A stretch of DNA of 64,000 nucleotides from Bacteroidota bacterium. Its GTDB lineage: Bacteria; Bacteroidota; Bacteroidia; Bacteroidales; SKPS01. The translations under genes were made by a program, and so were the position numbers. Below are positions 34,159 to 57,017 of this stretch, in pieces (the first letter of the stretch is position 1; each line of letters begins with the position of its first letter). The notes below the pieces were generated by a model. The model did no database searches. It saw only the letters and a list, made by a program, of their open reading frames with translations, and was not told the DNA's origin. The DNA lies in NCBI GenBank assembly GCA_022709695.1, contig JAKLII010000011.1:41620-105619 (forward strand). The letters are read 5' to 3'.

Positions 34159-34532
34159 ACCACAAAGGCACTAAGGGCACGGAGGAACACGGAGAGAGTT
34201 CTTTCGTGATTTTTAAAATCAGTGAAAATCAAAAAAAAATCCGCGTTACTTATACTGAGCGCAGCCGAAGTATCTGCGTTCTTTTTTTACCCGCTGATTC
34301 CGCAGATATTAAAACCAAATAAGACATATAAGAAAATATTAGGTTTCATATAAGCTTATATGCCTTCGTAAATAATCTTATATGTTAAAATTCAACACAT
34401 TTACACATTTACATCCCGGATCGCTTCGCTCCCGGGACTTCGCTTTGCTCAGCATTTTCACATTGGTCCCTGACCCGCAGATCCCACGGATTTTCTCAGC
34501 TTTTTCACTTTTTCCTTTTTCCTTTTGCCCTT
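34159..34532. repeat. Modular intergenic repeat element, copy 1, plus extra arms
   Basis: ACCACAAAGGCAC... core at 34159 (near-identical to 56816); AAAATCAGTGAAAATC arm at 34215; 24-nt hairpin at 34249-34272; CATATAAG palindrome at 34308-34414 (matches 44656-44772); inverted hairpin relative ACTTCGCTTTGCTCAG at 34437-34452; heptamer arm at 34506-34532. Confidence 0.85.
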
Positions 34533-34624
34533 AGTCTTTCATAAGTTATCAACATTCACCCCCGGCAGCGAGAAACCTTTTATTTTTAGCCTTGCAAATA
34601 TCCCACGGAAAAACACCTTACTGC

Positions 34625-37600
34625 ATGTCTCAATTTGTTCATCTGCACGTTCATACACAATATTCGCTCCTCGACGGGGCCTCCGGGATTTCCTCGCTGG
34701 TTTCCCGTGCAAAGGAGTTGGGGATGCCGGCGCTCGCCATCACCGACCATGGCAATATGTTTGGCGCCATCCATTTTCTGAGCGAGGCAATAAAGCAGGA
34801 AATAAAGCCTATTCTTGGCTGCGAAGTCTACGTAGCCGAGGGTGATCGTACCCGCCGGGGGGGCAGGGACGACCGCAGCGGTCACCACCTGATTCTGCTC
34901 GCCAAAAACAAGGAAGGATACCACAACCTGGCAAAGCTGGTCTCAAAGGGGTATCTGGAGGGATTTTACTACACCCCGCGTGTCGACAAGCAGCTGATCC
35001 GTGAGCATTCTGAAGGGCTTATCGCCCTGTCGGCCTGCCTGGGGGGAGAGCTTCCGCAAGCCATCATGAAGTCGGGATACGAAGCCGGGCTGGCCATCGC
35101 CCGCGAGTTTCAGGAGATTTTCGGGGAGGACTATTACCTCGAGCTCCAGAACCACGGGATCCCCGAACAGCAGGAGGTGAACCCTGTGATTGACGCCATT
35201 GCCGCCGAAACCGGAATCCGCATGGTGGCTACCAACGACGTGCATTTTATCAGGGCCGAAGACTACGATGCCCATAAAATCCTCATCTGCCTCAACACCG
35301 GTAAGGATTATGACGATGCCGACGCACTCCACTACACCGGGCAGGAGTACCTGAAGTCGGCCGGTGAGATCGAAAAGCTGTTCCCCGGAATGCCGGAGGT
35401 GCTGGAGAACACCCTGGAGATTGCCAATAAGGTTGAAGTGTTCGATCTGAAAAGGGATGTGATCCTGCCGGTATTTCCGCTGCCGGAGGGTTTTGCGGAT
35501 GCCGATGCCTACCTCAGTCACCTCACCTACGAAGGGGCTGCAGCGAAATATGGTGCTTTAAACGAAGAGGTCAAGCAGCGGCTGGTTTATGAGCTGGATG
35601 TGATCCGGGGGATGGGGTATGCCGGCTATTTCCTGATTGTACAGGATTTTATTGCAGAGGCCCGCCGCAGGGGAACCCTGGTGGGACCCGGCAGGGGTTC
35701 TGCAGCAGGCTCTGCCGTGGCCTACTGCATCGGCATCACCAATATCGACCCCATAAAATACAGGCTGCTCTTCGAGCGGTTCCTGAACCCGGAGCGTATG
35801 TCGATGCCCGATATCGATGTGGATTTTGATGATTACGGCCGCGATGATATCATCCGCTATGTACAGGACAAATACGGCGAAGACCATGTGGCACAGATTG
35901 TTACATTTGGAAGGATGGCAGCCAAATCGGCCATCCGCGATGTGGCCCGGGTGCTGAAGCTCCCACTGCCCGAGGCAGACCGCCTGGCGAAAATGGTGCC
36001 CGATGGCCCGAAAGTCACCCTGGAGTCGGCCCTGCGCGATTCGCCCGACCTGATGCAGGAACTGAAGGAGGGGGAGGAGAAGGTGCAGAAAACCCTCCGG
36101 TTTGCCCAGACCCTCGAAGGCTCCGTGCGGCAGACCGGCACCCATGCCTGTGGCGTGATCATCGGCCCCGAACCCCTGATTGAACACATCCCCCTCTGCA
36201 CCCAGAAGGAGTCAAGCATCATGGTTACCCAGTACGACGGGAAGCTGATTGAAGGGGTGGGGATGCTGAAAATGGACTTCCTGGGCCTCAGCACCCTGTC
36301 TATGATCAAGGACGCGCTGGTGGCCATCGAGGAGCGGCATGGGATAAAAATCGACATCGATACCATCCCGCTGGATGACGAAAAGACCTTTGCCCTCTTC
36401 AGAAGGGGCGATACCATGGGGCTTTTCCAGTTTGAATCGGAGGGGATGCAGATGTACCTCAAAGACCTTCAGCCCGAAGGGATCGAAGACCTGATCGCCA
36501 TGAATGCCCTCTACCGCCCGGGCCCGATGGATTACATCCCGGTGTATATCGACCGGAAGCACGGAAAGGCGAAAGTGGAATACCCCCACGAGATGCTGAG
36601 CGGGATCCTTGACTATACCTACGGCATTATGGTGTACCAGGAACAGATCATGCAGGCGGCCCAGATTATGGGGGGGTTCTCGCCCGGGAAAGCCGATAAT
36701 CTGCGGAAAGCCATGGGGAAAAAGGAGATTCAGATCATGCTTCAGCAGAGGTTGGATTTTATTGAAGGGGCTGAAGCCAGGGGAATTGACCGGAACAAGG
36801 CCACAGAGGTCTTCGACACCATGGCCAAATTTGCAGAATATGGCTTCAACAGATCCCATTCTGCCGCTTACTCATTGCTGGCTTACCAGACAGGCTATCT
36901 GAAAGCCCACTACCCCTCTGAGTACATGGCCGCCGTGCTCACGCACCACCTGAGCGACATCAAAAAAATCACCCTTTACATCGATGCCTGCCGGCAAAGC
37001 GGCATCAATGTGCTGGGGCCCGACGTCAACCACAGTGGCATCCGGTTCTCCACCAACGAAAAGGGGGAGATCCTGTTCGGCCTCGGAGCGGTGAAGGGTG
37101 TGGGTGAAATCGCTGCACAGGCGATCATACAGGAACGCCGGAGCCGGGGAGCCTTCGCCTCGGTGTTCGACTTCATCAAGCGTGTGCCCCTGAAGACCGT
37201 GAACAAACGATGCCTCGAGGCGATGGCCATGGCCGGGGTTTTCGACAGCCTGGGAACCCACCGCGCCCAGTTTTTCCATTCCGAAGGGGTGGATGGCACC
37301 ACCTTCATCGAAAAACTCATCCGTTTCGGGGGGCTGGCCCAGCAGCACAGGGAAACGGCACAGCAATCCCTTTTCGGCGACGATGAAGCGGCTGCAATCC
37401 CCGATCCGTTGCTCCCCAGCTGCAACCCCTGGTCCCCCCTCCAGCAACTCAGTAACGAAAAGGAGGTGATCGGATTCTATGTGTCCGGACACCCCCTCGA
37501 CCAGTATAAGCTGGAAATCAGGACCTTTGTGCGGAATAACACCGATGAGGTGAAAAACGACATGAAACGCTTCATGCAGCGTGAGTTCACCCTCGGGGTG

Positions 37601-38086
37601 ATCGTGAATGAGGTGGCCCACCGGTATTCGAAAACCGGAAGACCCTTTGGAAACCTTACCCTCGAAGACTATCAGGGTACATTTTCCCTGAGCCTGTATG
37701 GCGAGGATTACCTGAAATGGAAACATCTGATGGTGAAGGGTGAGTTCCTCTTTATCAAAGGGGATGTGACACAGCGCCATGCAGGATCTGAAGAGTACTT
37801 TTACCGGATCAGGGATGTGAAGCTCCTGTCGGAGGTGCTGAATCATTACGTAAAAGGGATCATTTTGTCGGTGGATTTGAAGCAAACCACTGCAGATGAA
37901 CATCTTGCTGCTCAATTGCTGAAACTCATCCGGGCGCACCCGGGCAACTGCAAAATCAAGATGTTTGTGAGAAATGAAGAGGAAACGATGATGTTTTTCC
38001 TTCCGAAACGGTATGTGAATCCCTTTGATTTCCTGCGGAATATCAAGGATGTTCCTGGGGTCGTTTATGCATTGGAGGATAAATAA
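34625..38086 (+). CDS. dnaE: DNA polymerase III subunit alpha
   Basis: PHP motif HLHVHTQYSLLDG, GRGSAAGS, PDIDVDF and KMDFLGL. Start taken at MSQF. Confidence 0.98.
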   Translation: MSQFVHLHVHTQYSLLDGASGISSLVSRAKELGMPALAITDHGNMFGAIHFLSEAIKQEIKPILGCEVYVAEGDRTRRGGRDDRSGHHLILLAKNKEGYHNLAKLVSKGYLEGFYYTPRVDKQLIREHSEGLIALSACLGGELPQAIMKSGYEAGLAIAREFQEIFGEDYYLELQNHGIPEQQEVNPVIDAIAAETGIRMVATNDVHFIRAEDYDAHKILICLNTGKDYDDADALHYTGQEYLKSAGEIEKLFPGMPEVLENTLEIANKVEVFDLKRDVILPVFPLPEGFADADAYLSHLTYEGAAAKYGALNEEVKQRLVYELDVIRGMGYAGYFLIVQDFIAEARRRGTLVGPGRGSAAGSAVAYCIGITNIDPIKYRLLFERFLNPERMSMPDIDVDFDDYGRDDIIRYVQDKYGEDHVAQIVTFGRMAAKSAIRDVARVLKLPLPEADRLAKMVPDGPKVTLESALRDSPDLMQELKEGEEKVQKTLRFAQTLEGSVRQTGTHACGVIIGPEPLIEHIPLCTQKESSIMVTQYDGKLIEGVGMLKMDFLGLSTLSMIKDALVAIEERHGIKIDIDTIPLDDEKTFALFRRGDTMGLFQFESEGMQMYLKDLQPEGIEDLIAMNALYRPGPMDYIPVYIDRKHGKAKVEYPHEMLSGILDYTYGIMVYQEQIMQAAQIMGGFSPGKADNLRKAMGKKEIQIMLQQRLDFIEGAEARGIDRNKATEVFDTMAKFAEYGFNRSHSAAYSLLAYQTGYLKAHYPSEYMAAVLTHHLSDIKKITLYIDACRQSGINVLGPDVNHSGIRFSTNEKGEILFGLGAVKGVGEIAAQAIIQERRSRGAFASVFDFIKRVPLKTVNKRCLEAMAMAGVFDSLGTHRAQFFHSEGVDGTTFIEKLIRFGGLAQQHRETAQQSLFGDDEAAAIPDPLLPSCNPWSPLQQLSNEKEVIGFYVSGHPLDQYKLEIRTFVRNNTDEVKNDMKRFMQREFTLGVIVNEVAHRYSKTGRPFGNLTLEDYQGTFSLSLYGEDYLKWKHLMVKGEFLFIKGDVTQRHAGSEEYFYRIRDVKLLSEVLNHYVKGIILSVDLKQTTADEHLAAQLLKLIRAHPGNCKIKMFVRNEEETMMFFLPKRYVNPFDFLRNIKDVPGVVYALEDK

Positions 38087-38132
38087 CCAAAGTTTATCCT
38101 TTCAGCCGTGAACAAAATGTTCTGAAAAATTG

Positions 38133-38140
38133 TAAGTTTG
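38133..38140 (+). promoter_or_regulatory. -7 box for trxA
   Basis: TAAGTTTG(CA). Confidence 0.6.
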
Positions 38141-38164
38141 CAGAAACCTATAATTACACGCATA

Positions 38165-38482
38165 ATGGCATTAGAAATCAACGATGCGAATTTTGAAGAA
38201 CTGGTGGTAAAATCGGATAAACCGGTAATAATCGACTTCTGGGCAGTCTGGTGCGGCCCATGCCGTATGATTGCACCCCTGATTGAAGAGATGGCCAGGG
38301 AGTATGAAGGGAAAGCGGTGATCGGGAAGCTTGACGTTGACAGCAACCCCAACGTGACCACGAAATTTGGCGTCCGCAATATCCCCACAGTGCTCTTCCT
38401 GAAAAACGGTCAGGTAGTCGACAAGCAGGTGGGCGCCGTACCCAAATCGGTACTGGTGCAAAAGCTGGAAGCACTTCTCTGA
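38165..38482 (+). CDS. trxA: Thioredoxin
   Basis: WCGPC active site. Start taken at MALEIND. Confidence 0.97.
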   Translation: MALEINDANFEELVVKSDKPVIIDFWAVWCGPCRMIAPLIEEMAREYEGKAVIGKLDVDSNPNVTTKFGVRNIPTVLFLKNGQVVDKQVGAVPKSVLVQKLEALL

Positions 38483-38556
38483 TTGATGTGAATACTGTAA
38501 CTATTTCAGGATGAGCCGGATTATTCCATCAGGAACCGGTATCACGCTATTTCCTT

Positions 38557-39495
38557 TTGTCTATGCCTATTGTTGAACAAAAGTATATCGACCCGTTCAG
38601 CCCGCTGGAGATTCTTGCACGGCAGGTGGTGGAGGGGTTTATAACGGGGCTGCACAAGAGCCCGTTTCATGGATTCTCTGTTGAATTTGCCGAGCACAGG
38701 CTTTACAATCCCGGTGAATCCACACGTCATATCGACTGGAAGCTTTACGGCAAAACCGAAAAGCTGTTTGTGAAGCGGTACGAAGAGGAGACCAACCTCC
38801 GGTGCCAGTTGATCATCGACAACAGCTCTTCGATGTATTTTCCGGTAATTGATAAGGTTACCGTTGAGAATCCCAATAAAGCCACCTTCTCGGTGTATTG
38901 TGCTGCTGCCATCATGCACATGCTCCGGCAGCAGCGGGATGCCGCCGGGCTCTCCCTTTTCAGCAGTGGAATTGAACTGCAAACCCGTTGCCGGTCGAGC
39001 AACGTGCACTATAAATTCCTCTATTCGGAGCTGGAGAAGCTGTTGGATCAGTATCAGCCGGAACAGAAACGGTTAACCTCTGCCGCAAAGGCGCTCCATG
39101 AGATCGCCGAGGCCATTCACCGCAGGTCGCTGGTGGTGCTGTTCAGTGATATGTTTGATACGGAGGCAGATCCCGCAGAACTTTTCGATGCCCTGCAGCA
39201 CCTGCGGTACAACAAACACGAGGTGATTTTCTTCCATGTGGTGGATCAGCCCGGAGAAATAGAGTTTGATTACGACAACCGCCCCCACCGGTTCATCGAC
39301 ATGGAGAGCGGGGAGGTGGTGCGGCTCAATCCCAATGAAATCAGAGAAGAATACAAGGCACGTCTCACCTCATTCCAGAAGGAGCTGAAGGTACGGTGCG
39401 ACCAGTACCACATTGATTTCGTGGAGGCCAATATCCGTATGGGCTTCCGGCAGGTGCTGCTGCCTTACCTCGTGAAGAGGCAAAAGATGAAGTAG
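38557..39495 (+). CDS. DUF58 domain protein (MoxR-associated vWA-like)
   Basis: GLHKSPFHGFSVEFAEHRLYNPGE..RHIDWK and VKRYEEETN. Confidence 0.92.
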   Translation: MSMPIVEQKYIDPFSPLEILARQVVEGFITGLHKSPFHGFSVEFAEHRLYNPGESTRHIDWKLYGKTEKLFVKRYEEETNLRCQLIIDNSSSMYFPVIDKVTVENPNKATFSVYCAAAIMHMLRQQRDAAGLSLFSSGIELQTRCRSSNVHYKFLYSELEKLLDQYQPEQKRLTSAAKALHEIAEAIHRRSLVVLFSDMFDTEADPAELFDALQHLRYNKHEVIFFHVVDQPGEIEFDYDNRPHRFIDMESGEVVRLNPNEIREEYKARLTSFQKELKVRCDQYHIDFVEANIRMGFRQVLLPYLVKRQKMK

Positions 39496-39569
39496 GTACC
39501 CGGCATTTCAGTTCCGGGTGATCAAACTTTAGGAGGTTTTTATTGTTCATTTGAAAAAACAATTGAACC

Positions 39570-40262
39570 ATGAAAACACTTCTTGCTCTTTTAGCGACTA
39601 TTTTATTGCCATATACCCTTTTGGCACAACCGTTTAAGCTAGACTCCCTGCCCTATGCCTACGATGCGCTGGCACCCCATCTGGATGCCCGTACGATGGA
39701 GATCCACCATACGAAGCATCACCAGGCGTATGTGAACAACCTGAACAAAGCAATTGCCGGTACCCCTCTGGAGAAGATGACCCTGACCGAACTGATGCTG
39801 AATATCAGCAGGATGGGAGATGCCATCCGGAACAACGGGGGCGGGCATTACAACCACGACCTGTTCTGGAAGATCCTTTCGCCGAAACCAGCATTGATGC
39901 CGAAAGGTGATCTTATGTCCGCAATCACTGCCCAGTACGGCACCCTTGATTCCCTGAAGCGTGAAATCAACCGGGCAGCGATGGGGCAGTTCGGCTCGGG
40001 TTGGGCATGGCTTGTGCTTACCCCCGATCGTCGCCTGGCGGTGGTATCAACACCAAACCAGGACAATCCGCTGATGGATGTGGCGAAAGTGCATGGCATC
40101 CCGATCCTCGGGATTGACGTGTGGGAGCATGCGTACTACCTGAATTATCAGAACCGCAGGGCAGATTACCTCACAGCTGTGTGGAATGTGATCGACTGGT
40201 CGGTGGTGGCAGAGAACTATGCAAAAGCACTCAAATCACCTATTCTGGACATGCTGAAATAG
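39570..40262 (+). CDS. sodA: Superoxide dismutase, Mn-type signature, with a signal peptide
   Basis: HHTKHHQAY, NNGGGHYNH, NQDNP and DVWEHAYY, preceded by a ~19-aa hydrophobic leader. Confidence 0.93.
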   Translation: MKTLLALLATILLPYTLLAQPFKLDSLPYAYDALAPHLDARTMEIHHTKHHQAYVNNLNKAIAGTPLEKMTLTELMLNISRMGDAIRNNGGGHYNHDLFWKILSPKPALMPKGDLMSAITAQYGTLDSLKREINRAAMGQFGSGWAWLVLTPDRRLAVVSTPNQDNPLMDVAKVHGIPILGIDVWEHAYYLNYQNRRADYLTAVWNVIDWSVVAENYAKALKSPILDMLK

Positions 40263-40271
40263 CAGGAGCCT

Positions 40272-41495
40272 CTACCGTAAAACCTTGTACTGAAGCCCTT
40301 TCTCATCGAGCTTTTGTTTGATGGTTTCGAGCTGACTGGTATCCTGCAGGTTAAAAGTGATGGTGGCCAGCACATACCCCACCGGTACCGATGTCATTGA
40401 CCGGTCGTGGGAGATGTCGTGGATGTTGGCCCTCAGTTTTTCGAGGATCGAGATGATGGATTTGAGCTCCCCGGCCAGGTCCGGGATTAATACGGCGATG
40501 CGGGCCCTGAGCTGTTCGTCCATCATCCCCTTTTCCATCACCTGCTGCAGCAATCCCATGTTGATGTTTCCACCGCTGATGATGGGAACCACATTTCCTT
40601 CGAGATATTTTGATTTCTTGTAGATTACAGCGGCCAGTGAGGCTGCGCCTGAGGGTTCTGCCAGCATTTTGGCCCGCTGCAGCAGCAGGTAGGAGGTGCG
40701 GGCGATTTCGGCGTCGTTCACCACAACCACTTCATCCACATACTTTTTTACAGCCTCGAAGGTTAGGGTGCCCGGGGTCTTCACCGCGATGCCATCGGCA
40801 ATGGTGTGCAGATGCTTCATGGTGGTGATCGCCTTCTTCTCCAGCGAAAGGCTCATCGACTGGCTCCCGTCGGCTTCCACTCCGATGATCCTGATATCGG
40901 GGTTGAGCTGCCGGATGGCAATGGCGATGCCCGCGATAAGGCCACCCCCTCCGATCGGAACTACGATGGCATGGATGTCTTCGAGCTGTGAAAATACCTC
41001 CAGGCCGATGGTTCCCTGCCCTGCGATGATGAGCGGGTCGTTGAAGGGGTGAACAAACGTTCCGCCATTTTTTTCGATGTCCTCCATGGCAGCAGAAAAA
41101 GCGTCATCAAATGTTTCCCCTGTTAGGATCACCTCAGCGCCGTAGGCCCGGGTGGCAATCACCTTGAGGGGCGGGGTGAAAACCGGCATGAACACTTTGC
41201 TTTTTACACCGAATTTCGAGGCAGCATAGGCCACACCCTGTGCGTGGTTACCTGCAGAGGCACAAACCACACCCCGCAGCATCTCATCCTCCGTAAGGCT
41301 GCTGACCCTGTTCAGTGCCCCCCGTACTTTGAAGGAACCGGTCGACTGCAGGTTCTCGAGTTTCATATACACATTGGCCCCCGACATGGCCGAGAAAGTC
41401 TTGCTGTGCTCGAGGGGTGTGGCTTTGATATAGCTTTTCAGCACGGTCTGTGCCCTGATCATATCCGATAGGTGGGGAAGTTCTTGTGCGGTCAT
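40272..41495 (-). CDS. ilvA: Threonine ammonia-lyase with a C-terminal ACT domain
   Basis: KLENLQSTGSFKVRGA (PLP lysine), SAGNHAQG, IGGGGLI and AEPSGA. Confidence 0.92.
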   Translation of the reverse strand: MTAQELPHLSDMIRAQTVLKSYIKATPLEHSKTFSAMSGANVYMKLENLQSTGSFKVRGALNRVSSLTEDEMLRGVVCASAGNHAQGVAYAASKFGVKSKVFMPVFTPPLKVIATRAYGAEVILTGETFDDAFSAAMEDIEKNGGTFVHPFNDPLIIAGQGTIGLEVFSQLEDIHAIVVPIGGGGLIAGIAIAIRQLNPDIRIIGVEADGSQSMSLSLEKKAITTMKHLHTIADGIAVKTPGTLTFEAVKKYVDEVVVVNDAEIARTSYLLLQRAKMLAEPSGAASLAAVIYKKSKYLEGNVVPIISGGNINMGLLQQVMEKGMMDEQLRARIAVLIPDLAGELKSIISILEKLRANIHDISHDRSMTSVPVGYVLATITFNLQDTSQLETIKQKLDEKGLQYKVLR

Positions 41496-41641
41496 GGGTC
41501 TGGTTATTTAGAATGGTACAAAATTACGGTTTAATGATGATCATTGTGTTGCCGGTCGAACAGAATGCTGATTTCTTTGGTATTTTTAACACTGACAAAA
41601 AATCGAAATTATTCATACAAACACACAGAAAATCAATCACT

Positions 41642-42220
41642 ATGGAAAATTCATTGAAAGGAACACGCACAGAGCAGAACCTGCTGAAGGCATTTGCAGG
41701 GGAATCCCAGGCCCGCAACCGGTACGAGATGTTTGCCAAAGCAGCCCGCAAAGAGGGGTACGAGCAGATCGCCAACCTATTTCAGGAGACCGCCAACCAG
41801 GAGAAAGAACACGCCAAGCGCTTCTTCGGCTTTCTCGAAGGGGGCATGGTAGAGTTTACCGCCATGTTTCCTGCCGGTATCGTGGGTACTACAGCAGAAA
41901 ACCTGAAGGCTGCCGCTGAAGGGGAAAACGAGGAGTGGACCGATCTGTATCCCCATTTTGCCGAGATCGCAGCAGAAGAGGGATTTAAAGCCGTAGCCAC
42001 CGCCTTTAAACTCATTGCGAAGGTGGAGGAGGAGCATGAGAAGCGTTATCTGAAGCTATTGCAGAACATCTCAGAGGACAAGGTATTTATGCGTGATGGC
42101 AAGGTATGGTGGCAGTGCATCAACTGCGGCTATGTGTATGAATCGGCAAAGGCACTGGAGAACTGCCCTGCCTGCCTCCATCCGAAGGCCTTCATGCAGC
42201 TCAAACCGGAGAATTATTAG
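41642..42220 (+). CDS. rbr: Rubrerythrin
   Basis: AFAGESQARNRY, EKEHA, ENEEWTDLY, and C-terminal CINCGY...CPAC. Confidence 0.96.
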   Translation: MENSLKGTRTEQNLLKAFAGESQARNRYEMFAKAARKEGYEQIANLFQETANQEKEHAKRFFGFLEGGMVEFTAMFPAGIVGTTAENLKAAAEGENEEWTDLYPHFAEIAAEEGFKAVATAFKLIAKVEEEHEKRYLKLLQNISEDKVFMRDGKVWWQCINCGYVYESAKALENCPACLHPKAFMQLKPENY

Positions 42221-42307
42221 CCGGCATAATCCGTGTTCTGTTTCTTTGAGCTCGCTGACTTTCAATCTGTCATTTATTCTCAGATTGCATTCTGGGATGA
42301 ATAGTTG

Positions 42308-42315
42308 TATTTTTG
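42308..42315 (+). promoter_or_regulatory. -7 box for the SBBP-repeat gene
   Basis: TATTTTTG. Confidence 0.5.
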
Positions 42316-42344
42316 TGCGGTAGTAAGAAATTAATGCAATTCTC

Positions 42345-44032
42345 ATGAAACACATCATATTGTGGGTTTTTGTGTTGATTGCCATGCCTTTGTCCTCCCA
42401 GAAACCTGTTTGGGAATGGGCAAGAACCACCGGTGGGCCAGGGAAATCCTTCTTTAATGGTGTCAATGCAAGCCCTGATGGGTATATCTATGTAACAGGC
42501 GGTTATGGTGATGGATTTATCACCTTTGGTGCTGATACTTTGCAACCATGCGGTGTTCAGTGGGCAGATGTATTCTTAGCTAAGATAAACTCTTCGGGCA
42601 ATGTGTTGTGGGTAAAGACTTTTTGTGGATATGGACATGAATTTGGTAACCAGCTTGCTTTCGACAAGGGGGGCAATTTGTATCTTACCGGGGTGTTCGC
42701 AAGCCCTTATCTGGTTTTTGGTAGTGATACTTTGATTAATTTGCCGGGTACTTCATCACCTGACTATGGTTACCAGTTCATTGTTAAGCTGGATTCTGCA
42801 GGCAACTATCAATGGGGAAAGGTTATCGGAGGGATGCGTCTCATGGGATATTACATTGATGTAGCAGAAGATCATGAGGATAATCTATTGGTTAGTGGAA
42901 TATTCTCTACCCCTTAGTTGTGTTTGGGAGCGACACCCTGATCAATATGGGAAACACAGACCTTTTTCTGGCCAAGTATGATACCAATGGTAATCTGCTG
43001 TGGGCCAGATCTGTCGGAGGAGCAGGTTACGAGGGCTCAAAATCGATTGATATCGATGAAACAGGTCATGTGTTGATTGTGGGCTTTTTTACAAGCAGCC
43101 CTGCCTGGTTCGATACGGTGGCTTTGTTTAATCCGGCAACCACTGGATTGGGAATTTTACAATCTTTCTTTTTGGCCAAATACGATCCGGCCGGCAACTT
43201 GGTATGGGTAAAAGCAGAGGGTGGCCCTGGCAGCTCAGGCGGGGCACAGGTCGCGGCTCATCCTTCCGGAGGCTCAGTGGTTGCCGGTGGGATCCTTGCC
43301 CCTTCCGGTTTAGTTGGAAATGTGGTGTTAGCACCAGTGGGGGAGTCTTGTGCCTTTTTTGCAAAACATGATCTCTCGGGGAATGTGCAATGGGTGCAAT
43401 CGGTTGGAGGTACACTGAGCATCAGTAAAGACGGGGGAACCAATGTTGCGGTTGATCAGAACGGTGATATCATTGCTACAGGTTCGTATTACGGGCCTGC
43501 TTTGATCATTGGCATGGATACTTTGCAAAACGCCAACTACTTACAAGGTTATGATATTTTCATCGTAAAATACAATGCTTCCGGTATTCCCCAGTGGGCG
43601 GCTTCTGTTGCGGGCAGTGGAAATGAACATATTGAAGATCTTTGTGTTGACTTTTCGATGAGCACTTACATAGCAGGATTATATGGTTGTCAGATGCTTA
43701 TAATAGGGCAAGACACCCTTGTGAACAACCAGCAGCACAAGGGGTATATTGCAAGACTAAGCGAAACCACAGATATTACCGATCCAAAAATAGAATTGTC
43801 TGAAATTCAGGTATATCCCAATCCTTTTACCGAACAGGTTTTTGTAGTACTGCCCAAAGGGTTGCCTGAGGTTGTTTGGGAACTGTACGATCTGCATGGA
43901 AGGTTATTGTTTCATGGGAGACTCCTGGAAACAAACCGCATTTTTCTGCATGATTTACCAGCAGGGGTTTATGTGTTATCGTTGGCCGATCAAAAAATGG
44001 CAGTGACCCAAAAGCTGATCAAAACCAGATAA
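42345..44032 (+). pseudogene. Frameshifted T9SS type A cargo with SBBP-like beta-propeller repeats (~562 aa if repaired)
   Basis: ORFs 42345-42917 (signal peptide) and 42920-44032 (CTD VYPNPF) join if one C is added to the C4 run at 42910-42913, giving FSTPLVVFGSDTLIN. This parallels the earlier repeat FASPYLVFGSDTLIN. Confidence 0.85.
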
Positions 44033-44042
44033 GGATAATAGA

Positions 44043-44107
44043 AAAGCCCGCCCTTAAAGTTACTTTCTGTTGGTTTGCCTATGCATGTTTCCTTAGGGGC
44101 GGGCTTT
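44043..44107. terminator. Long-loop inverted repeat, probable bidirectional terminator
   Basis: AAAGCCCGCCCTTAA ... TTAGGGGCGGGCTTT between convergent genes. Confidence 0.7.
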
Positions 44108-44146
44108 CACCGTTGTTTAAATTGCCGGAAGCAAAAAAGGAGTGGT

Positions 44147-44470
44147 TTATTGAATGATCAGTTTGCCCGATTTCAAGGTTTTATTTTGATCCACCACCCT
44201 GTAGAAGTAAAATCCTTTATCCAACAGATTAACGGGAAGCTCGGTAATGGTATTGCTGTTAACAGCACTTCTGCCCATCAGCTTGCCGGTATAAGCATAG
44301 ATTTCAATGAAACATCCCGATGGCATCGCTGTTCCTTCTGTTACCACAAATAGCATGTCAGTAGCTGGGTTCGGATACACATAAATCGTAGATTCCGGGT
44401 TTTCTTTCAGATCGGAAGTGCTCATCTGCTTTATGGTGGCATTTGCACTGCTTACCTGTATCAATGAGTC
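44147..44470 (-). pseudogene. Orphan C-terminal fragment of a T9SS cargo gene (linker plus CTD only)
   Basis: ...STIYVYPNPATDML...IYAYTGKL...GFYFYRV...GKLIIQ. There is no signal peptide, and the ORF's first residues derive from the repeat beginning at 44471. Confidence 0.75.
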
Positions 44471-44772
44471 GATGAGGTAAATGCCAAGCATGCTTCTGGG
44501 GCTCTGTCGTTTACTGAACCACATAGCAACATAGGAATCATAGCCACATAGAAAAAGCTATGATCCTATGTTGCCTATGATGCAATGTGGTAAAAGAAAA
44601 TCAGTGCAAATCTTAATGAATCCGCGTCATCGGTGTTTTATTTTAACATTCAGACATTAAAACCATATAAGACATATAAGAAAATATAAGGTTTCATATA
44701 AGCTTAAATGTCTTAAATGACTTCTTAAATGATCTTATAGGTTAAAAATCAACACATTTACACATTTCCACA
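44471..44772. repeat. Modular intergenic repeat element, copy 2; left ~160-bp direct repeat (44471-44629)
   Basis: Aligns with 49778-49937. Contains a CATAG-type palindrome at 44518-44591, the constant arm with an empty hairpin site, and the CATATAAG palindrome plus (ACACATTT)n at 44656-44772. Confidence 0.9.
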
Positions 44773-46476
44773 TCATTCCTTCACCACTTTTTTGGTGATT
44801 ACAATTCCTTTTTCTGTGGTGACTTTTAGGATATACATTCCTGGTTTCAAGTCCGAAACATCCAAAGTAACGAGTTGGATTTCGGGTCTGAGAGTTGCCA
44901 TGAGTTTTCCCTGCAGGTTATACATTTCGGCCTTTGAAATCCTATCGTGCAGGAGGTTTAAGCTCAGATAAAGAACCTCATGTGCAGGATTTGGATATAC
45001 GATCATTGGCTCGTATTTCAACAGATTCAACTCCTCCATACCAATATGCATCAGGGTATCGATACAGCCGGGCATTACACAGCCAATGCTGTCGGTTTTT
45101 GCCAGCCAGGCACCGGCACCAACACCCGTAATCAGAAAACCCTCCGATTCGGCTTTCCTTAGATTGTATAAAAATTCACCCCAATACGGAACCCAACGGC
45201 TCCAAATTTCATTGCCCAAAGTGTCGGAGCAAAACAGGTACACTCCCGAAAAACCATTGACCTGAGAGGCAATTACAATATTCCCGGCTTCATCTTCAAC
45301 AATCCCCATGGGTGCTGCTGATGCCAGATATAAGCCATTAGGATGCAGGTATTTTCCATGATATGCCTGCAAAACAATATTTCCATTTAAATCCATTCTT
45401 CCGAAGTGGATATAACCCCATCCCACCGGATAGGTGGAATCACCATCGGTAGTAGCAAACAGAAAACCGCCATTTTTACTTTGGTTAACACAAAGCTTAT
45501 TGATAATGAAATCAAGAGTCTTGTCAAATATCTGAGTCCAGGATAAATCCAAACTGCTGTCAAGCTTGAGTAAATAGTATTTTCTGTTAAAGTGGGCAGA
45601 CCAGGTTGGGTCATTCTTAAACTCATTATGACCTGCAAGCAAATACCCCCCATCCTCGGTTTTCACAATGCCACTGCACATTACAGCGGTTTTATGTCCT
45701 CCTCCTACAAAGAATCGCTTCATGTTAATAATGTTGGCATTGCTTTCGAATTGCACAATGGTTACAAAAGTGGTGTCCCCATAATACAGGCTGTCATAAC
45801 CAAAATGTCGGCTTTCGGAAACAGTATAGGCCTGGGTGGTAAACCGGCCGTCGGCCTCAGGCAGCAGGTCCACAGACCAGATCAGTCCGCCAAGGGAGTC
45901 GGGCAGTTCCACAATCTTACTCCAGATGAGGTTTCCTGCGGTATCGAGCTTGATAAAAAAAGTTTTTTCATCTAAAAAAATCTGAGTACTGTCAAATGAG
46001 ACATATTCACCCATTGAAAGCAAATTTCCGTCTGAAAGCATGATCAGGTTATGCATATAGGTCCGGAATTGGTTGAATTCTCCTAAAGAATCTTTCCGAA
46101 CCCACACTTGATTCCCAGTTTGGTCGAGTTTCATGATAAAAGGTTTCCAGATGCTGGTTTTCACCGCACCGGGCAGCTTGTCGCGGTACTCACCGTTCAG
46201 GTAAATGTACCCATCCATCTCCAGGGCATCCGTGCCATACACATTTACGTCGTAATTCGACAGGGTAAAATATTTATGGATGACGTAGGAGATCTGCAAG
46301 GTTTGTTTTCCGGAGCCCGGCGCGAAGAAAGGAATTTTTTGCGATGGCAGTTGTTGTGGGTATCCATCGCCCTGGCTTAGCTTACCAGGCTGAATATAGG
46401 GTGAAGGCACCCGGACCTGTGCGTGTAAACCTATGGAAATCAAAAAGAAGAACAGAGTAAAGAGTATCTTTTGCAT
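44773..46476 (-). CDS. T9SS type A sorting domain protein with a probable beta-propeller; function unknown
   Basis: 567 aa with a signal peptide, repeated ..K(L/T)D..GN..W motifs, and the CTD VYPNPAHEVL...GMYILKV...KKVVKE. Confidence 0.85.
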   Translation of the reverse strand: MQKILFTLFFFLISIGLHAQVRVPSPYIQPGKLSQGDGYPQQLPSQKIPFFAPGSGKQTLQISYVIHKYFTLSNYDVNVYGTDALEMDGYIYLNGEYRDKLPGAVKTSIWKPFIMKLDQTGNQVWVRKDSLGEFNQFRTYMHNLIMLSDGNLLSMGEYVSFDSTQIFLDEKTFFIKLDTAGNLIWSKIVELPDSLGGLIWSVDLLPEADGRFTTQAYTVSESRHFGYDSLYYGDTTFVTIVQFESNANIINMKRFFVGGGHKTAVMCSGIVKTEDGGYLLAGHNEFKNDPTWSAHFNRKYYLLKLDSSLDLSWTQIFDKTLDFIINKLCVNQSKNGGFLFATTDGDSTYPVGWGYIHFGRMDLNGNIVLQAYHGKYLHPNGLYLASAAPMGIVEDEAGNIVIASQVNGFSGVYLFCSDTLGNEIWSRWVPYWGEFLYNLRKAESEGFLITGVGAGAWLAKTDSIGCVMPGCIDTLMHIGMEELNLLKYEPMIVYPNPAHEVLYLSLNLLHDRISKAEMYNLQGKLMATLRPEIQLVTLDVSDLKPGMYILKVTTEKGIVITKKVVKE

Positions 46477-46491
46477 GGTAAAAAGTATAAG

Positions 46492-46518
46492 GGCGGGGAC
46501 TGTTCCACAGCCCCCGCC
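46492..46518 (-). promoter_or_regulatory. GC-rich intergenic stem-loop between tandem T9SS genes
   Basis: GGCGGGG-a-CTG-ttcca-CAG-c-CCCCGCC. Confidence 0.55.
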
Positions 46519-46528
46519 GGAGGAATGT

Positions 46529-49236
46529 TTATTTGCGTATTACAAGTTTTTCGATGCCAACCGGTTTTCCCTGATTGAATATGGTAATCAGGTAAACTCC
46601 ATTGGCAAGGCTGTTTACATCCAGTTCAGTACTGGTTCCCTGAATAGATTGCCGGATCAGTATCCTTCCGGTGAGAGATCCCTCACAGAAATTTCAGTTC
46701 CGGGTACATCGGTAATTATGGAGACTATGGGGGTTGTACCTGCTGGGTTGGGAAAAACAGTTGGCTTGCTCAGGATTGGTTCCTTCGGTGTTTTCCCGAT
46801 TCTTGGCAAATAAGAAGTAAGATCGGATGAAATCAGACCAAAGGAGTACCCCAGATAGGCCTCCAGGATTGACAATGCCACACTGGATGCCACGGTGGTT
46901 CCAAATGCCATGTCGATCAGCTGGTTGATATCATCCTGTTGCAATTGGGTGAAATCTCCTCCGTAGGTGAAGTACACCAGATCAAGGAGTTCGAAAAGGA
47001 TATCACAGGCATCTGTTTCAAAAGTATCGGTGGCTATCTGGTACAGCACCTGTTTGTAGGTATCCACATTCGATGGATCCAATACTTCATAATAGTGCAA
47101 TATCAGTGAAAAGATGCTTTGAAAATCACCATCACTATCAAGAGCACCGATGATACCATTCACATCAATCAGGGTGGTGTCGGCATCAAGATAATAGTTG
47201 TGCAGCTCATTTCTGGCCTTTCTCAGCTCTTTTTTATTATAGGCTACCTCCATTTCATACATTTCGTATTGGGTAAGGGAATCGGCTGCCAGAAAGATGG
47301 CATTCAGGCTCTGTTGCGAAAGGGTGTCGGTTCGGTTTGCCAGTGCATCCCTTACGGCACCGTTTTTAATACCATAGGGGTTTTGAAGCAGGATATCGGC
47401 CACAAAAACAGCCGGCATGGCCTCTTTTGCCGCCATAATGGCAAGTACATCATAGCTTGGGTTTTGCGACATAAACTCAGCATAGGCATAGATGTAATTG
47501 GTTGAATCGAACGTGTTGGCAATATTCAGCATATAGGCATGATTGCTACCGTTTGCGTAATTCTAAAAATCTCCAAGGGCTGCCACATAATCTGAGGCAG
47601 TACTGAAAATGTTCCCCACAATGGCAGGCAATTCTGGGTATTGGGATGGAATTCTCGATTCGCAGTGGGGGTAGAGGTCCTGATCATCTGTAATCCAAGA
47701 ATGCTGAGTAGGTTGCACATGGTTAGGTATCCCGAAATTGTTCTGGTTTCCGGTGTAGTATTCGATATAATACCAGGGAGAGCCTGAGGTAAATTTGGGT
47801 TCCATGTATACGATATCGCTAAGGTTCCATGGATTTTGCCCCTGGTGGTTGTTAAAGAAGTCCCGTTCAGAGCCGGTGGCCAGAGGGTAGGGTCTTTCAA
47901 TGATATTAAATGCCGGAGAGGTGGAATACCCGGTCATGGACCCACCCTGCATTCTTGCCACACCATACACCGGATCATTTAGCCCGGCCGGTTCCACAGA
48001 GGCGCTCAGGGCAAAAAAGTCATCGGTTTTTATTGGGACCAGAGTGTTGCAAAAGCATCGAAGGCCGTCATCATCAGGTTGGGTAGGGTGTTCTATTCCT
48101 CTGTTTTTGTTTAGGGCCTGGATACTGTAGTAACAATCGGTAACTGTATTGCGATACAGTTCGTTTGATTGGCTACCGGAGTTCACTACAACGATACCGT
48201 AAGTATTTTCAAAGTTACCTTTATTGTTGCTTACTTCGATCTCATTCCCTTCTACCTGAAAACCAGAGCATCCGTTAAGATGTATACCATACTGTTTAGG
48301 AGAGGTGCAAGGTGAGCTTTGGCAGTCAATTGCCAATTGAATCTGATTGTTGAAAAGATCCAGGTTTCTTGCAGCAATAGCCTGAATGCCAACTCTTTCT
48401 ATTTGCGGGTAATATACATTCTGAAAGATACCATCTCTTACGGTTACTTTAATTGTGGGCAGGTACCCATTGTCGATATAGACCCCTTTGGTGCAATCTA
48501 AAAATTGGTTTTTAATAGGTGTATAGGGGGGAGTAGTATTGGGACTGCTTTTTATGATGGCAGAAGAGCCAATAATATGGATTCCGGTGAAAAAATAGTC
48601 AGGATAGGCAACGTTATCGAATGTACATCCCAATACCTGAATGTTGTTAACCCGGTACATATATACTCCGATAGTACTGGCATTATATCCGCCAATGAAT
48701 TCAGTCTCTATGATACGGCTTTTATCGTTTACATAATTTCCGGTAAGGTCTGTAGGTCGGTAATTCGAGAACCAGACACCTGTCTCGAAGCCTTCGATTA
48801 CACATCTGTCCAGAATAATATAACCACCGGTTCGGGTATAAGGATTGCTGTACCAGTTATTCACAGGATAACTGGCATTCAGAATATAGCATTCTGTTAA
48901 TCTGAGTTTAGGTTGGGCGGGTGATCCAAGCTGGGGATAGGCATCCCCCAAGCCATCCATGGAAATACCATACCACAGACCTGTTGAACTGATGAAATTC
49001 ACCCCTCCTGCCCGAAGGGACCCATCGGGTCGAATAATGATTCTGTTTGTGCCTGAATTCACAAAATCGACGGTTACGCCAGGATCAATACGTAATTCGG
49101 CACCATTCCAAATCCAGAGATTTCCATTAATCGTCTGGTCTGAACTCCATGTGGTATTTGAATAAATGTATACATCCTGTGCATTGACAAATATAACAGA
49201 AAAGAGAAGAAATATCAACAAATTTAGTTTTTTCAT
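46529..49236 (-). pseudogene. Doubly disrupted T9SS cargo: right-handed beta-helix-like N-terminus, acidic helical region, CTD (~901 aa if repaired)
   Basis: An in-frame TAG at 47563-47565 gives ALGDF*NYANGSNHAYMLNI with both ORFs in the same frame. An extra TC in (TC)3 at 46673-46678 shifts the frame; removing it restores VRDLTGRILIRQSIQGTSTELDVNSLANGVYLITIFNQGKPVGIEKLVIRK* ending at 46529. Confidence 0.88.
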
Positions 49237-49741
49237 TTGATTTGAGTTTGCGTTTGTTTTTACAAGAACAGAATGATTATCAAGAAATTTGTTTAAGAGG
49301 CCACCCTGGGTTTTGGGTGGCTATTTCGCTCCCAGTCATTCTTCCCCAGCCAAAAGATGGAAATCGGATAAAGACATTGAACCCCGGTCAGCCTGTTAGC
49401 TTGTTGGGTTACGTTCATTTGTTCAAACCCACTTATTACGACAACAATAGATCTGCAGAAATGCATTAAACATGTATTGAAAAGCATCTGAAATTAAAGC
49501 GCCATTTTCAATCCCGGGAATGAGTTTCAACCAACAAATGATCGGGAATGATTCCTGTGACCTCAAAATATTAAAATCGTGTGTATAATTGAAAAGGTAA
49601 AGATAATATAAAATTAACTCATTCCGACATAAAAATGAAAATATAGTTGAAATATGTTATGCGATTAGAAAAGAACATATTAATTCGACAGAAATACCCT
49701 CATTCGTGTATTGCTGGCAATGAGGAGAATAGAAAGCGGAT

Positions 49742-49971
49742 AACGCTGATTCTTATGATCTTATATGATTATTTCTGGATGAATTAAAATGCCAGGATGT
49801 TTTCTGGGCTCTGTCGTTTTCTGAACCACATAGCAACATAGGAATCATAGCCACATAGAAGAAAACTATGATCCTATGTTGCCTATGATCCAATGTGGTA
49901 AAAGAAAATCAGTGCAAATCTTAATGAATCCGCGTCACTTGTACTGAGCGCAGTCGAAGTATCCGCGTTCT
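49742..49971. repeat. Modular intergenic repeat element, copy 3; right ~160-bp direct repeat (49778-49937)
   Basis: CATAG palindrome at 49825-49899, constant arm, and 24-nt hairpin at 49938-49961. An additional (ATGATCTT)-like arm lies at about 49742-49770. Confidence 0.9.
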
Positions 49972-56800: not shown

Positions 56801-56815
56801 TTTTTGATTTTTTTT

Positions 56816-57017
56816 ACCACAAAGGCACTGAGGACACGGAGGAACACTGAGAAGAGGTCAGAAAACCCAGGTTCCTATGTGGTAAAGAAATCAGTGAAAA
56901 TCTTAATAAATCCGAGTCATCGGTGTTCTCTTGTCAAAGCGAAGTGCTTTTCAACCTTCTGCTACTCTATGACAGCAATCCAAACAACTAAACAACTCAA
57001 CAACTCAACCAATAAAC
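56816..57017. repeat. Modular intergenic repeat element, copy 4
   Basis: Hybrid core ACCACAAAGGCAC...CCTATGTGGT at 56816-56883, constant arm with an empty hairpin site, and octamer tail (A/C)AACAACT x3-4 at 56982-57017. Confidence 0.85.

Follow-up and report, generated by a model that had tools for sequence, protein, structure and literature searches.

Elements of 21-27 bases are too small for coding or for the usual transposon ends, and to our knowledge the way in which they move has gone unexplained since their description in Nostoc in 2008. The small dispersed repeat (SDR) families of Elhai et al. 2008 are said to be 21-27 nt long, to occur in Nostoc punctiforme and its relatives, and to lie in tandem heptamers and nested within themselves; some of these families reportedly share a hairpin supported by compensatory changes, their mobility being left unexplained. 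Here we describe a 24-nt element, CTTRTACTGAGCGCAGYCGAAGTA, that occurs twice in a 64,000-nt stretch of DNA from a Bacteroidota bacterium of the order Bacteroidales (GenBank assembly GCA_022709695.1, contig JAKLII010000011.1, forward-strand positions 41,620 to 105,619; hereafter the window, numbered from its first letter), within a genome of 3.39 Mb in 21 contigs. We consider it likely that these 24 bases stand on their own as a non-coding mini-element of the SDR kind that is inserted as a unit. The 24-mer is among the smallest mobile-looking DNA elements known; it would be a new member of the SDR kind, in a new phylum, and a reading of it as a repetitive extragenic palindromic (REP) sequence served by a REP-associated tyrosine transposase (RAYT) is unsupported.

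The likeness to SDRs extends over several features: the 24 nt fall within the 21-27 range, the element is non-coding, dispersed and multi-copy (13 copies in the genome under study), its hairpin shows compensatory changes, it is embedded in tandem heptamer-type repeats (TCCAAAA arrays in cyanobacteria; ATCnnnnnnA units in the genome under study) and, in related genomes, it is nested in copies of its own kind; this is a likeness to the reported description of SDRs. The difference lies in distribution, SDRs being reported as confined to one cyanobacterial subgroup, the heterocystous cyanobacteria, whereas the 24-mer is found in Bacteroidota and in non-Nostocacean cyanobacteria. PMC5861425 places no SDR outside Nostocaceae, and, together with PMC3116915, names HIP1 as a possible site of insertion for SDR5. 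Literature searched under the SDR name returned nothing on Bacteroidetes, PMC4692102 being without mention of it; 14-mers of the element had no match among the papers searched, and 10-mers matched primers only.

In the window one and the same repeat arm is present twice with the insert and twice without it. The four sites and their arms are as follows (a caret marks the junction, brackets enclose the insert):

34249..34272, plus strand: copy 1 of the 24-nt mini-element, CTTATACTGAGCGCAGCCGAAGTA; filled, in context AATCCGCGTTA(CTTATACTGAGCGCAGCCGAAGTA)TCTGCGTT; from sequence, pattern match and neighbouring genes
49938..49961, plus strand: copy 2 of the 24-nt mini-element, CTTGTACTGAGCGCAGTCGAAGTA; filled, in context AATCCGCGTCA(CTTGTACTGAGCGCAGTCGAAGTA)TCCGCGTT; from sequence, pattern match and neighbouring genes
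44629^44630: empty site, AATCCGCGTCA^TCGGTGTT
56919^56920: empty site, AATCCGAGTCA^TCGGTGTT
34216..34248, plus strand: left part of the copy 1 host arm, units of about 10 nt of the form ATCnnnnnnA, ending in ...AATCCGCGTTA; from direct reading and the arm family
34273..34282, plus strand: right part of the copy 1 host arm, TCTGCGTTCT
49906..49937, plus strand: left part of the copy 2 host arm, AAAATCAGTGCAAATCTTAATGAATCCGCGTCA
49962..49971, plus strand: right part of the copy 2 host arm, TCCGCGTTCT
44597..44639, plus strand: empty arm with junction 44629^44630, nearest relative of the filled arm 49906-49971
56888..56929, plus strand: empty arm with junction 56919^56920, downstream of valS

The first-pass annotation of this DNA had named these two filled and two empty alleles, and on re-reading the sites it proved correct to the base; its reading, that a very small element is inserted site-specifically within a second repeat, is supported as well, as the junction is the same, the nearest relatives are empty, and in other genomes and another phylum the hosts are unrelated. 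Both inserts are bounded by ...AATCCGCGTYA on the left and TCYGCGTT on the right. Comparison of the four sites reveals no target duplication at the insert, whose boundary is ambiguous by one base because an A stands before it and its own last base is an A. The filled arm before 49938 is identical to the empty arm at 44585-44629 over the 45 nt preceding the junction. The arm is composed of degenerate units of about 10 bases, ATCnnnnnnA (ATCAGTGCAA, ATCTTAATGA, ATCCGCGTCA, TCCGCGTTCT), and the insert lies exactly at a unit boundary, ...A^TC..., in the step ATCCGCGTCA^TCCGCGTT. A 17-mer pattern of the element has two matches in the window against 0.14 expected, a number reached by 2 of 100 shuffles (at most three mismatches). 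Both copies are intergenic, copy 1 between the divergent rpsP (minus strand) and dnaE (plus strand), and copy 2 at a distance of 35 nt downstream of the stop codon of a minus-strand gene of the beta-lactamase family, opposite to the copy.

Across the genome the arm family comprises 24 members, 6 filled and 18 empty, with junction and orientation constant. Four of the six filled arms have an empty arm as their closest relative; the empty arm at 44597..44639 has a nearest-arm score of 57, and its clade consists of two filled and two empty arms (SH-aLRT 96). In a maximum-likelihood tree of the arms built with the insert removed, the filled state requires five changes for the six filled rows, where shuffled labels require 5.5 on average and 214 of 500 shuffles need no more, and the well-supported branches require at least two changes between filled and empty. 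Since the tree forces at least two such changes, the filled arms are not one clone, and the arm-family insert appears to have been gained, or precisely lost, several times independently in this genome. A phylogeny of the arm, which had been put forward as a means of recognising empty alleles derived from one filled ancestor, was thus informative about clonality and too weak to tell gain from precise loss.

The 13 copies of the element family in this genome consist of five of 24 nt, seven of a 23-nt variant, CTTGTGCTGAG(C/T)TTGTCGAAGCA, and a single copy of a further variant reading CCTGTGCTGAGCCTGTCGAAGTA. All 13 are single and in one orientation relative to the arm, with no inverted doublets, and each 5' half of the element is followed by a 3' half. 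The 23-nt variant, in which the tip GAGYTTGTCGA stands in place of GAGCGNAGYCGA, is confined to contig C1 and to one larger composite repeat of ATTTCAGCG/AAATCCGCAGAA units, for which no empty counterpart was found in the genome; it would have multiplied passively, as a passenger of that repeat. Its positions are:

C1:84464, 88658, 88778, 88877, 88997, 621220 (minus strand) and 656033 (minus strand): copies of the 23-nt variant

For the search of other genomes the pattern YTTRYRCTGAGCRNAGYCGAAGYA was used with at most one mismatch, the same pattern read backwards serving as control. Of 401 genomes sampled from the same order, 51 carry the 24-mer, none with more than 27 copies; of 201 cyanobacterial genomes, 25 carry it, and the richest of these hold 83, 56, 49 and 49 copies; the backwards pattern has no match in any of the 401 and 201 genomes. 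Two of three cyanobacterial genomes reached through loci from a collection scan are likewise positive, one holding 14 copies and the other 10, in records whose titles name Oscillatoriales and Leptolyngbyaceae, and scans with the exact pattern gave at least 123 metagenome stretches and 17 stretches of viral contigs. The flanks are unrelated between genomes. The 24-mer is not a private REP of the genome under study; because it occurs elsewhere, in unrelated hosts and in another phylum, it constitutes an independent unit. Among the 17 stretches from viral contigs, eight (L370-L372, L376, L378-L380 and L383) have a common context, ...CGGCGGCTGARTAA^element^TGTCCTT..., and a group of related phage-like contigs therefore carries the 24-mer at one site; a search of named phage records with one viral context gave no match.

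The flanks of 127 distinct metagenome and viral copies among those listed (134 for some position counts) define where the element lies. The base preceding it is A in 75, G in 39, T in 8 and C in 5, and the base following it is T in 82, A in 25, G in 16 and C in 4, the background frequency of T being about 27%. As judged from these flanks the element sits at purine^T steps, mostly A^T, in part of the copies at an in-phase repeat junction; tabulation of the flanks, proposed in the first-pass annotation as a way to find a target, thus did reveal a preference. Short tandem repeats that continue in phase through the junction (match of at least 0.85) are the host of 22 of the 127 copies, compared with 0.8% of mispaired-flank controls, as in TCCAAAA^TCCAAAA, TGGGGAA^TGGGGAA, TTGGGCA^TTGGGCA, TTACGAA^TTAC and TTCACTA^TTCACTA. 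The junction type of the genome under study, ATCCGCGTCA^TCCGCGTT, recurs in metagenomes (L279, L295, L316, L343 and L355), and in two title-named cyanobacterial genomes almost every host reads ...AATCCAAAA^TCCAAAA.... Other hosts are hairpin tips, such as ATCGTCCCA^TGGGACGAT and ACCGC-GA^A-GCGGT; flanking stems of at least 4 bp accompany 12 of the 127 copies (controls 5.4%), and hairpins that serve as hosts are frequently interrupted at C-GA^A-G triloops (L019, L024 and copies in G029). Miniature inverted-repeat transposable elements and IS200-IS605 elements differ from the 24-mer, which lacks a target duplication and has as its target only R^T rather than a fixed 4-5 nt; no longer coding relative was seen among the halves of the element in the genome under study or among the halves sampled in the complete cyanobacterial genome G570.

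Some copies lie in loops of their own kind (L007, L020, L028, L037 and L236), with hosts such as GGCTGGTGAGCGA^AGTCGAACCAGC, CCTGTACTGAACGA^AGTCGAAGTACGG and CCCTGAGCGA^AGTCGAAGGG, and so do 5 of the 127 copies of the metagenome set; nesting within its own kind was not seen among the 13 copies of the genome under study. Tandem 24-mer arrays and stacks of half copies also occur (L251, L277, L015, L059, L067 and L081), and we read these, from their sequence, as probable products of slippage after nesting. In G570 (L396-L414) the 24-mer is split by two other inserts of 21 nt at GCG^AAG and TCG^AAG; these begin TTCGCGCAGCG... and TTGGCGTAGCC... and are themselves split by further pieces, resulting in multi-level nesting. 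Neither of the two 21-nt inserts has a match in the genome under study at up to four mismatches. The excess 5' halves sampled in G570 are copies interrupted by other mini-inserts, with the exception of L395, in which unrelated sequence follows the 5' half; a gene is seen at none of these halves.

The conserved part of the element is a 16-base core or tip, CTGAGCGNAGYCGAAG, which is kept across phyla while the pairs closing the stem covary. Closing pairs include TACT/AGTA, TGCT/AGCA and CACT/AGTG, and positions 6 and 23 of the 24-mer are paired in 132 of 134 listed copies (AT 61, GT 37, GC 34, AC 2). From this covariation a single strand is predicted to form a small hairpin, in which a YRCT/AGYR stem of 4 bp closes a 12-base tip. 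The tip centre reads GCGNAGY with N free, a likeness, as a structural analogy only, to d(GCGNAGC), which is said, from work of Hirao, Yoshizawa et al. in the 1990s, to be an extraordinarily stable DNA mini-hairpin with a GNA triloop; the flanking GA/GA could form tandem sheared pairs, although the fine structure is a matter of deduction from sequence. The fold ACTT-gt-ACTG-agcg-CAGT-cg-AAGT put forward at first has the lowest computed energy in copy 2 alone (-3.4 kcal/mol, z -1.6), and its inner ACTG/CAGT stem makes use of the freely varying N (A 60, G 26, C 26, T 22 in 134 listed copies); that inner stem is unsupported because N would have to be C.

The core is also found outside the 24-mer. 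One genome of the order holds 127 copies of a looser core, CTGAGYRNWGYCGAAG (control 0), with stems that are perfectly complementary yet very different, such as CGGTGG/CCACCG, CCGCTGA/TCAGCGG and CGCACC/GGTGCG. In a set of 118 distinct core copies, drawn from this genome and from the listing of a multi-phylum scan, 108 and 111 of the 118 listed can form the first and the second of the two pairs adjoining the core, with CG, GC, AU and UA all used, and the covariation score is 0.479 against 0.173 for shuffles (0 of 500 as high; slid partners at most 0.21). A scan with the bare 16-mer core is expected by arithmetic to give about 2000 chance matches, so only the complementarity of the flanks was used and the list of taxa was not counted; at least two flank pairs are formed in 77 of the 90 core copies listed (L085-L164). 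In listed records with titles from many phyla this wider core family often reads (C/T)GTCA-YS-core-SR-TCTC. At C3:1404-1450, outside the window, GGTCCCTGAGCGCAGTCGAAGGG occurs twice in tandem, with the same core and a CCCT/AGGG stem.

Two described hairpin families bear comparison with this core. CGTC-tagged REPs are, according to Di Nocera et al. 2013 (PMC3733652), short extragenic stem-loops of several phyla including Bacteroidetes and Spirochaetes for which a transposase was not found. Relatives of the wider core share with them a 5' (C/T)GTCA tag and A-T pairs at the foot of the stem (GTCATC-core-GATCTC), and we infer from this that the two may be related. The CGTC REPs differ from the 24-mer in having stems of 8-9 bp and loops of 4-5 nt, in contrast to a 4-bp stem and a conserved 12-nt tip, and the 24-mer starts CTTGT and lacks the tetranucleotide tag that stands beside the stem of CGTC and GTAG repeats. 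Flavo-1 (Rfam RF01705) is similar in that hairpins of the type found in Flavobacteria meet the core element; the core element is not a member of that family and is instead an extra insert in the terminal loop at L141 and L116, which score 33.5 and 33.3 bits against a gathering score of 42. A core insert in a Flavo-1-like terminal loop is another case of insertion at a tip.

The REP-like appearance of the hairpin had led the first-pass annotation to regard it as a substrate of RAYT/HUH transposases, and a REP element mobilised by a Y1/HUH protein, the hairpin being recognised and cut as single-stranded DNA by one of the genome's Y1 proteins, for instance in trans, is one alternative to be weighed. 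The general setting suits it: like REPs, the 24-mer is a short intergenic hairpin repeat, hairpin loops and slipped repeats are single-stranded targets, and the host genome has Y1 genes flanked by repeat arrays of their own. Seven matches to Y1_Tnp (PF01797) are present, six of them intact genes, and these six paralogs have the HxH, WQ and Y..Q..HH motifs and resemble subclass 1.2, which, according to Quentin et al. 2018 (PMC6006769), is mostly restricted to cyanobacteria and Bacteroidetes. The seven loci are:

C21:78729, C21:77804, C20:28734, C1:635781 and C1:485459: Y1 loci with flanking arrays
C8:21759 and C1:220007: Y1 loci with no repeat in the 260 nt flanking them

The five loci with arrays are REPtron-like and flanked by four other kinds of hairpin repeat (GCTGCGTAGCAGCGCCC, CCCCGAAGGGGT, CAACCCACGAAGTGGGTTG and CTGTCGCGCCTCCGGCGCT), the two matches on C21 sharing one kind. 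Neither the element nor its 16-base core occurs within 1.5 kb of any of the seven, and the linkage that a RAYT substrate would suggest is absent. Of the 29 Y1 loci in five high-copy genomes, two have a core copy inside 1.5 kb; they overlap and share this single copy, about 670 nt away, which is approximately chance level, and the Y1 gene concerned carries its own, different REPs as well. Matches to a profile built from the six paralogs are enriched among carriers of both phyla: within the order they are found in 46 of 51 carriers and 191 of 350 non-carriers (odds ratio 7.7, p 4e-7), and in cyanobacteria strong matches (E at most 1e-28) are found in 14 of 25 carriers and 10 of 176 non-carriers, genome size and kinship confounding both comparisons. 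As a marker, co-occurrence of this profile is yet neither necessary nor specific: five carriers of the order have no match to it, and in the cyanobacterial genomes with most copies (83 and 56) the only matches are weak and IS200-like. The repeats themselves also differ, since REPs keep their stems and vary their loops and co-vary with their own RAYT, whereas the 24-mer has a conserved tip and variable stem, is near-identical across phyla, flanks no Y1 gene, and is found as singletons rather than inverted doublets (REPINs). Taken together, mobilisation by a Y1/HUH protein seems unlikely to us.

Two further kinds of gene were considered as linked candidates and rejected. PF05635, the 23S rRNA intervening-sequence or Avd-like four-helix-bundle family, has 11 matches in the genome under study, one with an internal stop:

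C17:7639, C15:67869, C1:267814, C1:372932, C12:15278, C5:18925, C15:267348, C12:306309, C17:44878, C15:91020 and C1:428620: PF05635 matches

Most of these genes are bracketed by inverted tandem arrays with units of 7-11 nt that differ per locus, and the 24-mer is within 1.5 kb of none of the 11, the nearest copy being 5 kb off. PF05635 is loosely enriched among cyanobacterial carriers (21 of 25 positive and 70 of 176 negative genomes), and in one genome, G144, the 24-mer lies within about 150 nt of 2 of 12 matches, a proximity that we read as a shared liking for arrays. GIY-YIG genes, which together with RAYT/IS200-like genes had been suggested as possible flanking partners, have eight matches in the genome under study, and no copy of the element has a gene of either kind nearby. 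At C19:61400-62700 and C19:161378-162332 small tandem GIY-YIG genes each follow a repeated stretch resembling the 3' part of a tRNA gene, which may be an arrangement of the homing-endonuclease type beside a tRNA gene.

The hairpin might instead be functional and non-mobile, a selected RNA or DNA binding or processing site that has spread with larger repeats and whose empty arms are precise deletions. Selected structures usually show what is seen here, a tip that does not vary between phyla and closing pairs that covary; many copies of the core are in terminator-like hairpins immediately downstream of genes, and on C1 the 23-nt variant, with seven filled copies and no empty one, belongs to one composite repeat. 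However, position and orientation relative to genes are not fixed in the window, where one copy lies between divergent genes and the other past a stop on the opposite strand, and self-nested copies, stacks of half copies, a single phase in arrays and the extra insert in Flavo-1-like loops are not what such a site predicts; moreover, no Rfam family matches the region 33900-57200 of the window at E up to 1. We regard this explanation as quite improbable. A third possibility is that no dedicated enzyme is involved and that template switching or gene conversion between arrays, guided by microhomology (CGAAG, A^TC), has produced the pattern. Stacks of half copies and tandem copies do resemble slippage products, the hosts are prone to slippage, and no linked gene was found; against this, near-identical 24-mers occur in two phyla in hosts that are alike only in one or two junction bases, and most copies have base-exact boundaries, which leaves this the explanation to which we give the least credence of the three.

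Under the preferred reading of a self-contained mini-element of the SDR kind, comparison of the copies shows that the 24 bases are added as a unit and without target duplication at a purine^T step. The landing places are between short tandem repeat units or in hairpin loops, and where such a loop is the GNA loop of another element of this kind, a nested copy results. The element has no coding capacity, and its copying must therefore be performed by a trans-acting factor; insertion would most likely take place on single-stranded DNA exposed at replication and would be catalyzed by a trans enzyme of the nuclease/ligase type, for which a cognate flanking RAYT does not seem to qualify here.

Apart from the structural signature discussed above, several results weigh against this proposal. 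Computed DNA folding of the two copies is weak and not significant (-1.7 and -3.4 kcal/mol, z -0.4 and -1.6, in a range of z from -0.4 to -1.7), by a nearest-neighbour method that does not score GNA-triloop or sheared-pair structure. No mobilising enzyme was identified among the linked-gene candidates examined (Y1, PF05635 and GIY-YIG). Strand bias on the G570 chromosome is not significant, the best two-break split being matched by 209 of 2000 shuffles, and there is thus no support for an IS200-like lagging-strand rule. The weakly resolved arm tree is compatible with gain and with precise loss alike, and repeated precise deletion within the genome under study is possible. Read-level polymorphism had been suggested as a further sign of mobility; contigs of three public runs (2016, 2016 and 2022) keep the filled alleles and list no 24-nt indel, although rare variants may be hidden in contigs, and the 2022-run contig covering 49534-50042 has zero differences. 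Genomes of the same genus are 66-86% identical in genes and too diverged for a comparison of intergenic sites.

A second, distinct mini-element lies near copy 1:

34415..34452, minus strand: 38-nt mini-element, CTGAGCAAAGCGAAGTCCCGGGAGCGAAGCGATCCGGG, inside a tandem array of the ACATTTAC type
C1:624455, 624528, 624609, C3:106055, C4:35414, C12:338001, C12:410489 and the C17:44878 region: relatives of the 38-nt element

What had been taken for an inverted relative of the 24-mer at 34437-34452 belongs to this element, which is a separate family, though the GAGCGAAGC motif is common to both. Its eight relatives elsewhere in the genome are mostly in other short-period arrays, and one further copy stands beside a PF05635 gene. 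The family measures about 38-45 nt and reads GCTGAGCGAAGCCGAGCG.AGCGAGTCCCGGGAGCGAAGCGATCCGGG, with shorter forms, in host arrays of AAATGTG, GATTGAG and AAAGTTTGT. Ahead of the arms of the 24-mer stand other repeat modules (34160-34215, 44500-44596, 49800-49905 and 56810-56887), CACAAAGGCACTRAGGRCACGGAGGAACAC.GAG together with the hairpin CACATAGCAACATAGGAATCATAG...CTATGATCCTATGTTGCCTATG, which makes the intergenic regions patchworks of different families of short repeats. Two open reading frames near the window copies encode a C-terminal sorting domain of the type IX secretion system, a domain restricted to Bacteroidota, and this places the genome in that group.

It is possible, though we hold it to be somewhat less than probable, that the same 24-base element, differing by at most two letters, is being kept and is still spreading in Bacteroidota and cyanobacteria, and on some phage contigs, by means of an enzyme other than a cognate RAYT that acts at A^T steps between repeat units. 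If true, this would be the smallest mobile DNA shared across phyla, and its patchiness in two phyla would make the mobilising factor findable by phyletic profiling. The recurrence of the same 24-mer with the same target habit in a second phylum, partly on phage contigs, argues against a lineage-specific curiosity. The specific rule for targets (purine^T where repeat units meet and within GNA loops) and the contrast sets of carrier and non-carrier genomes from two phyla are usable in a search for the enzyme. For annotation, the element accounts for presence/absence differences in intergenic repeat mosaics and for some spurious small open reading frames.

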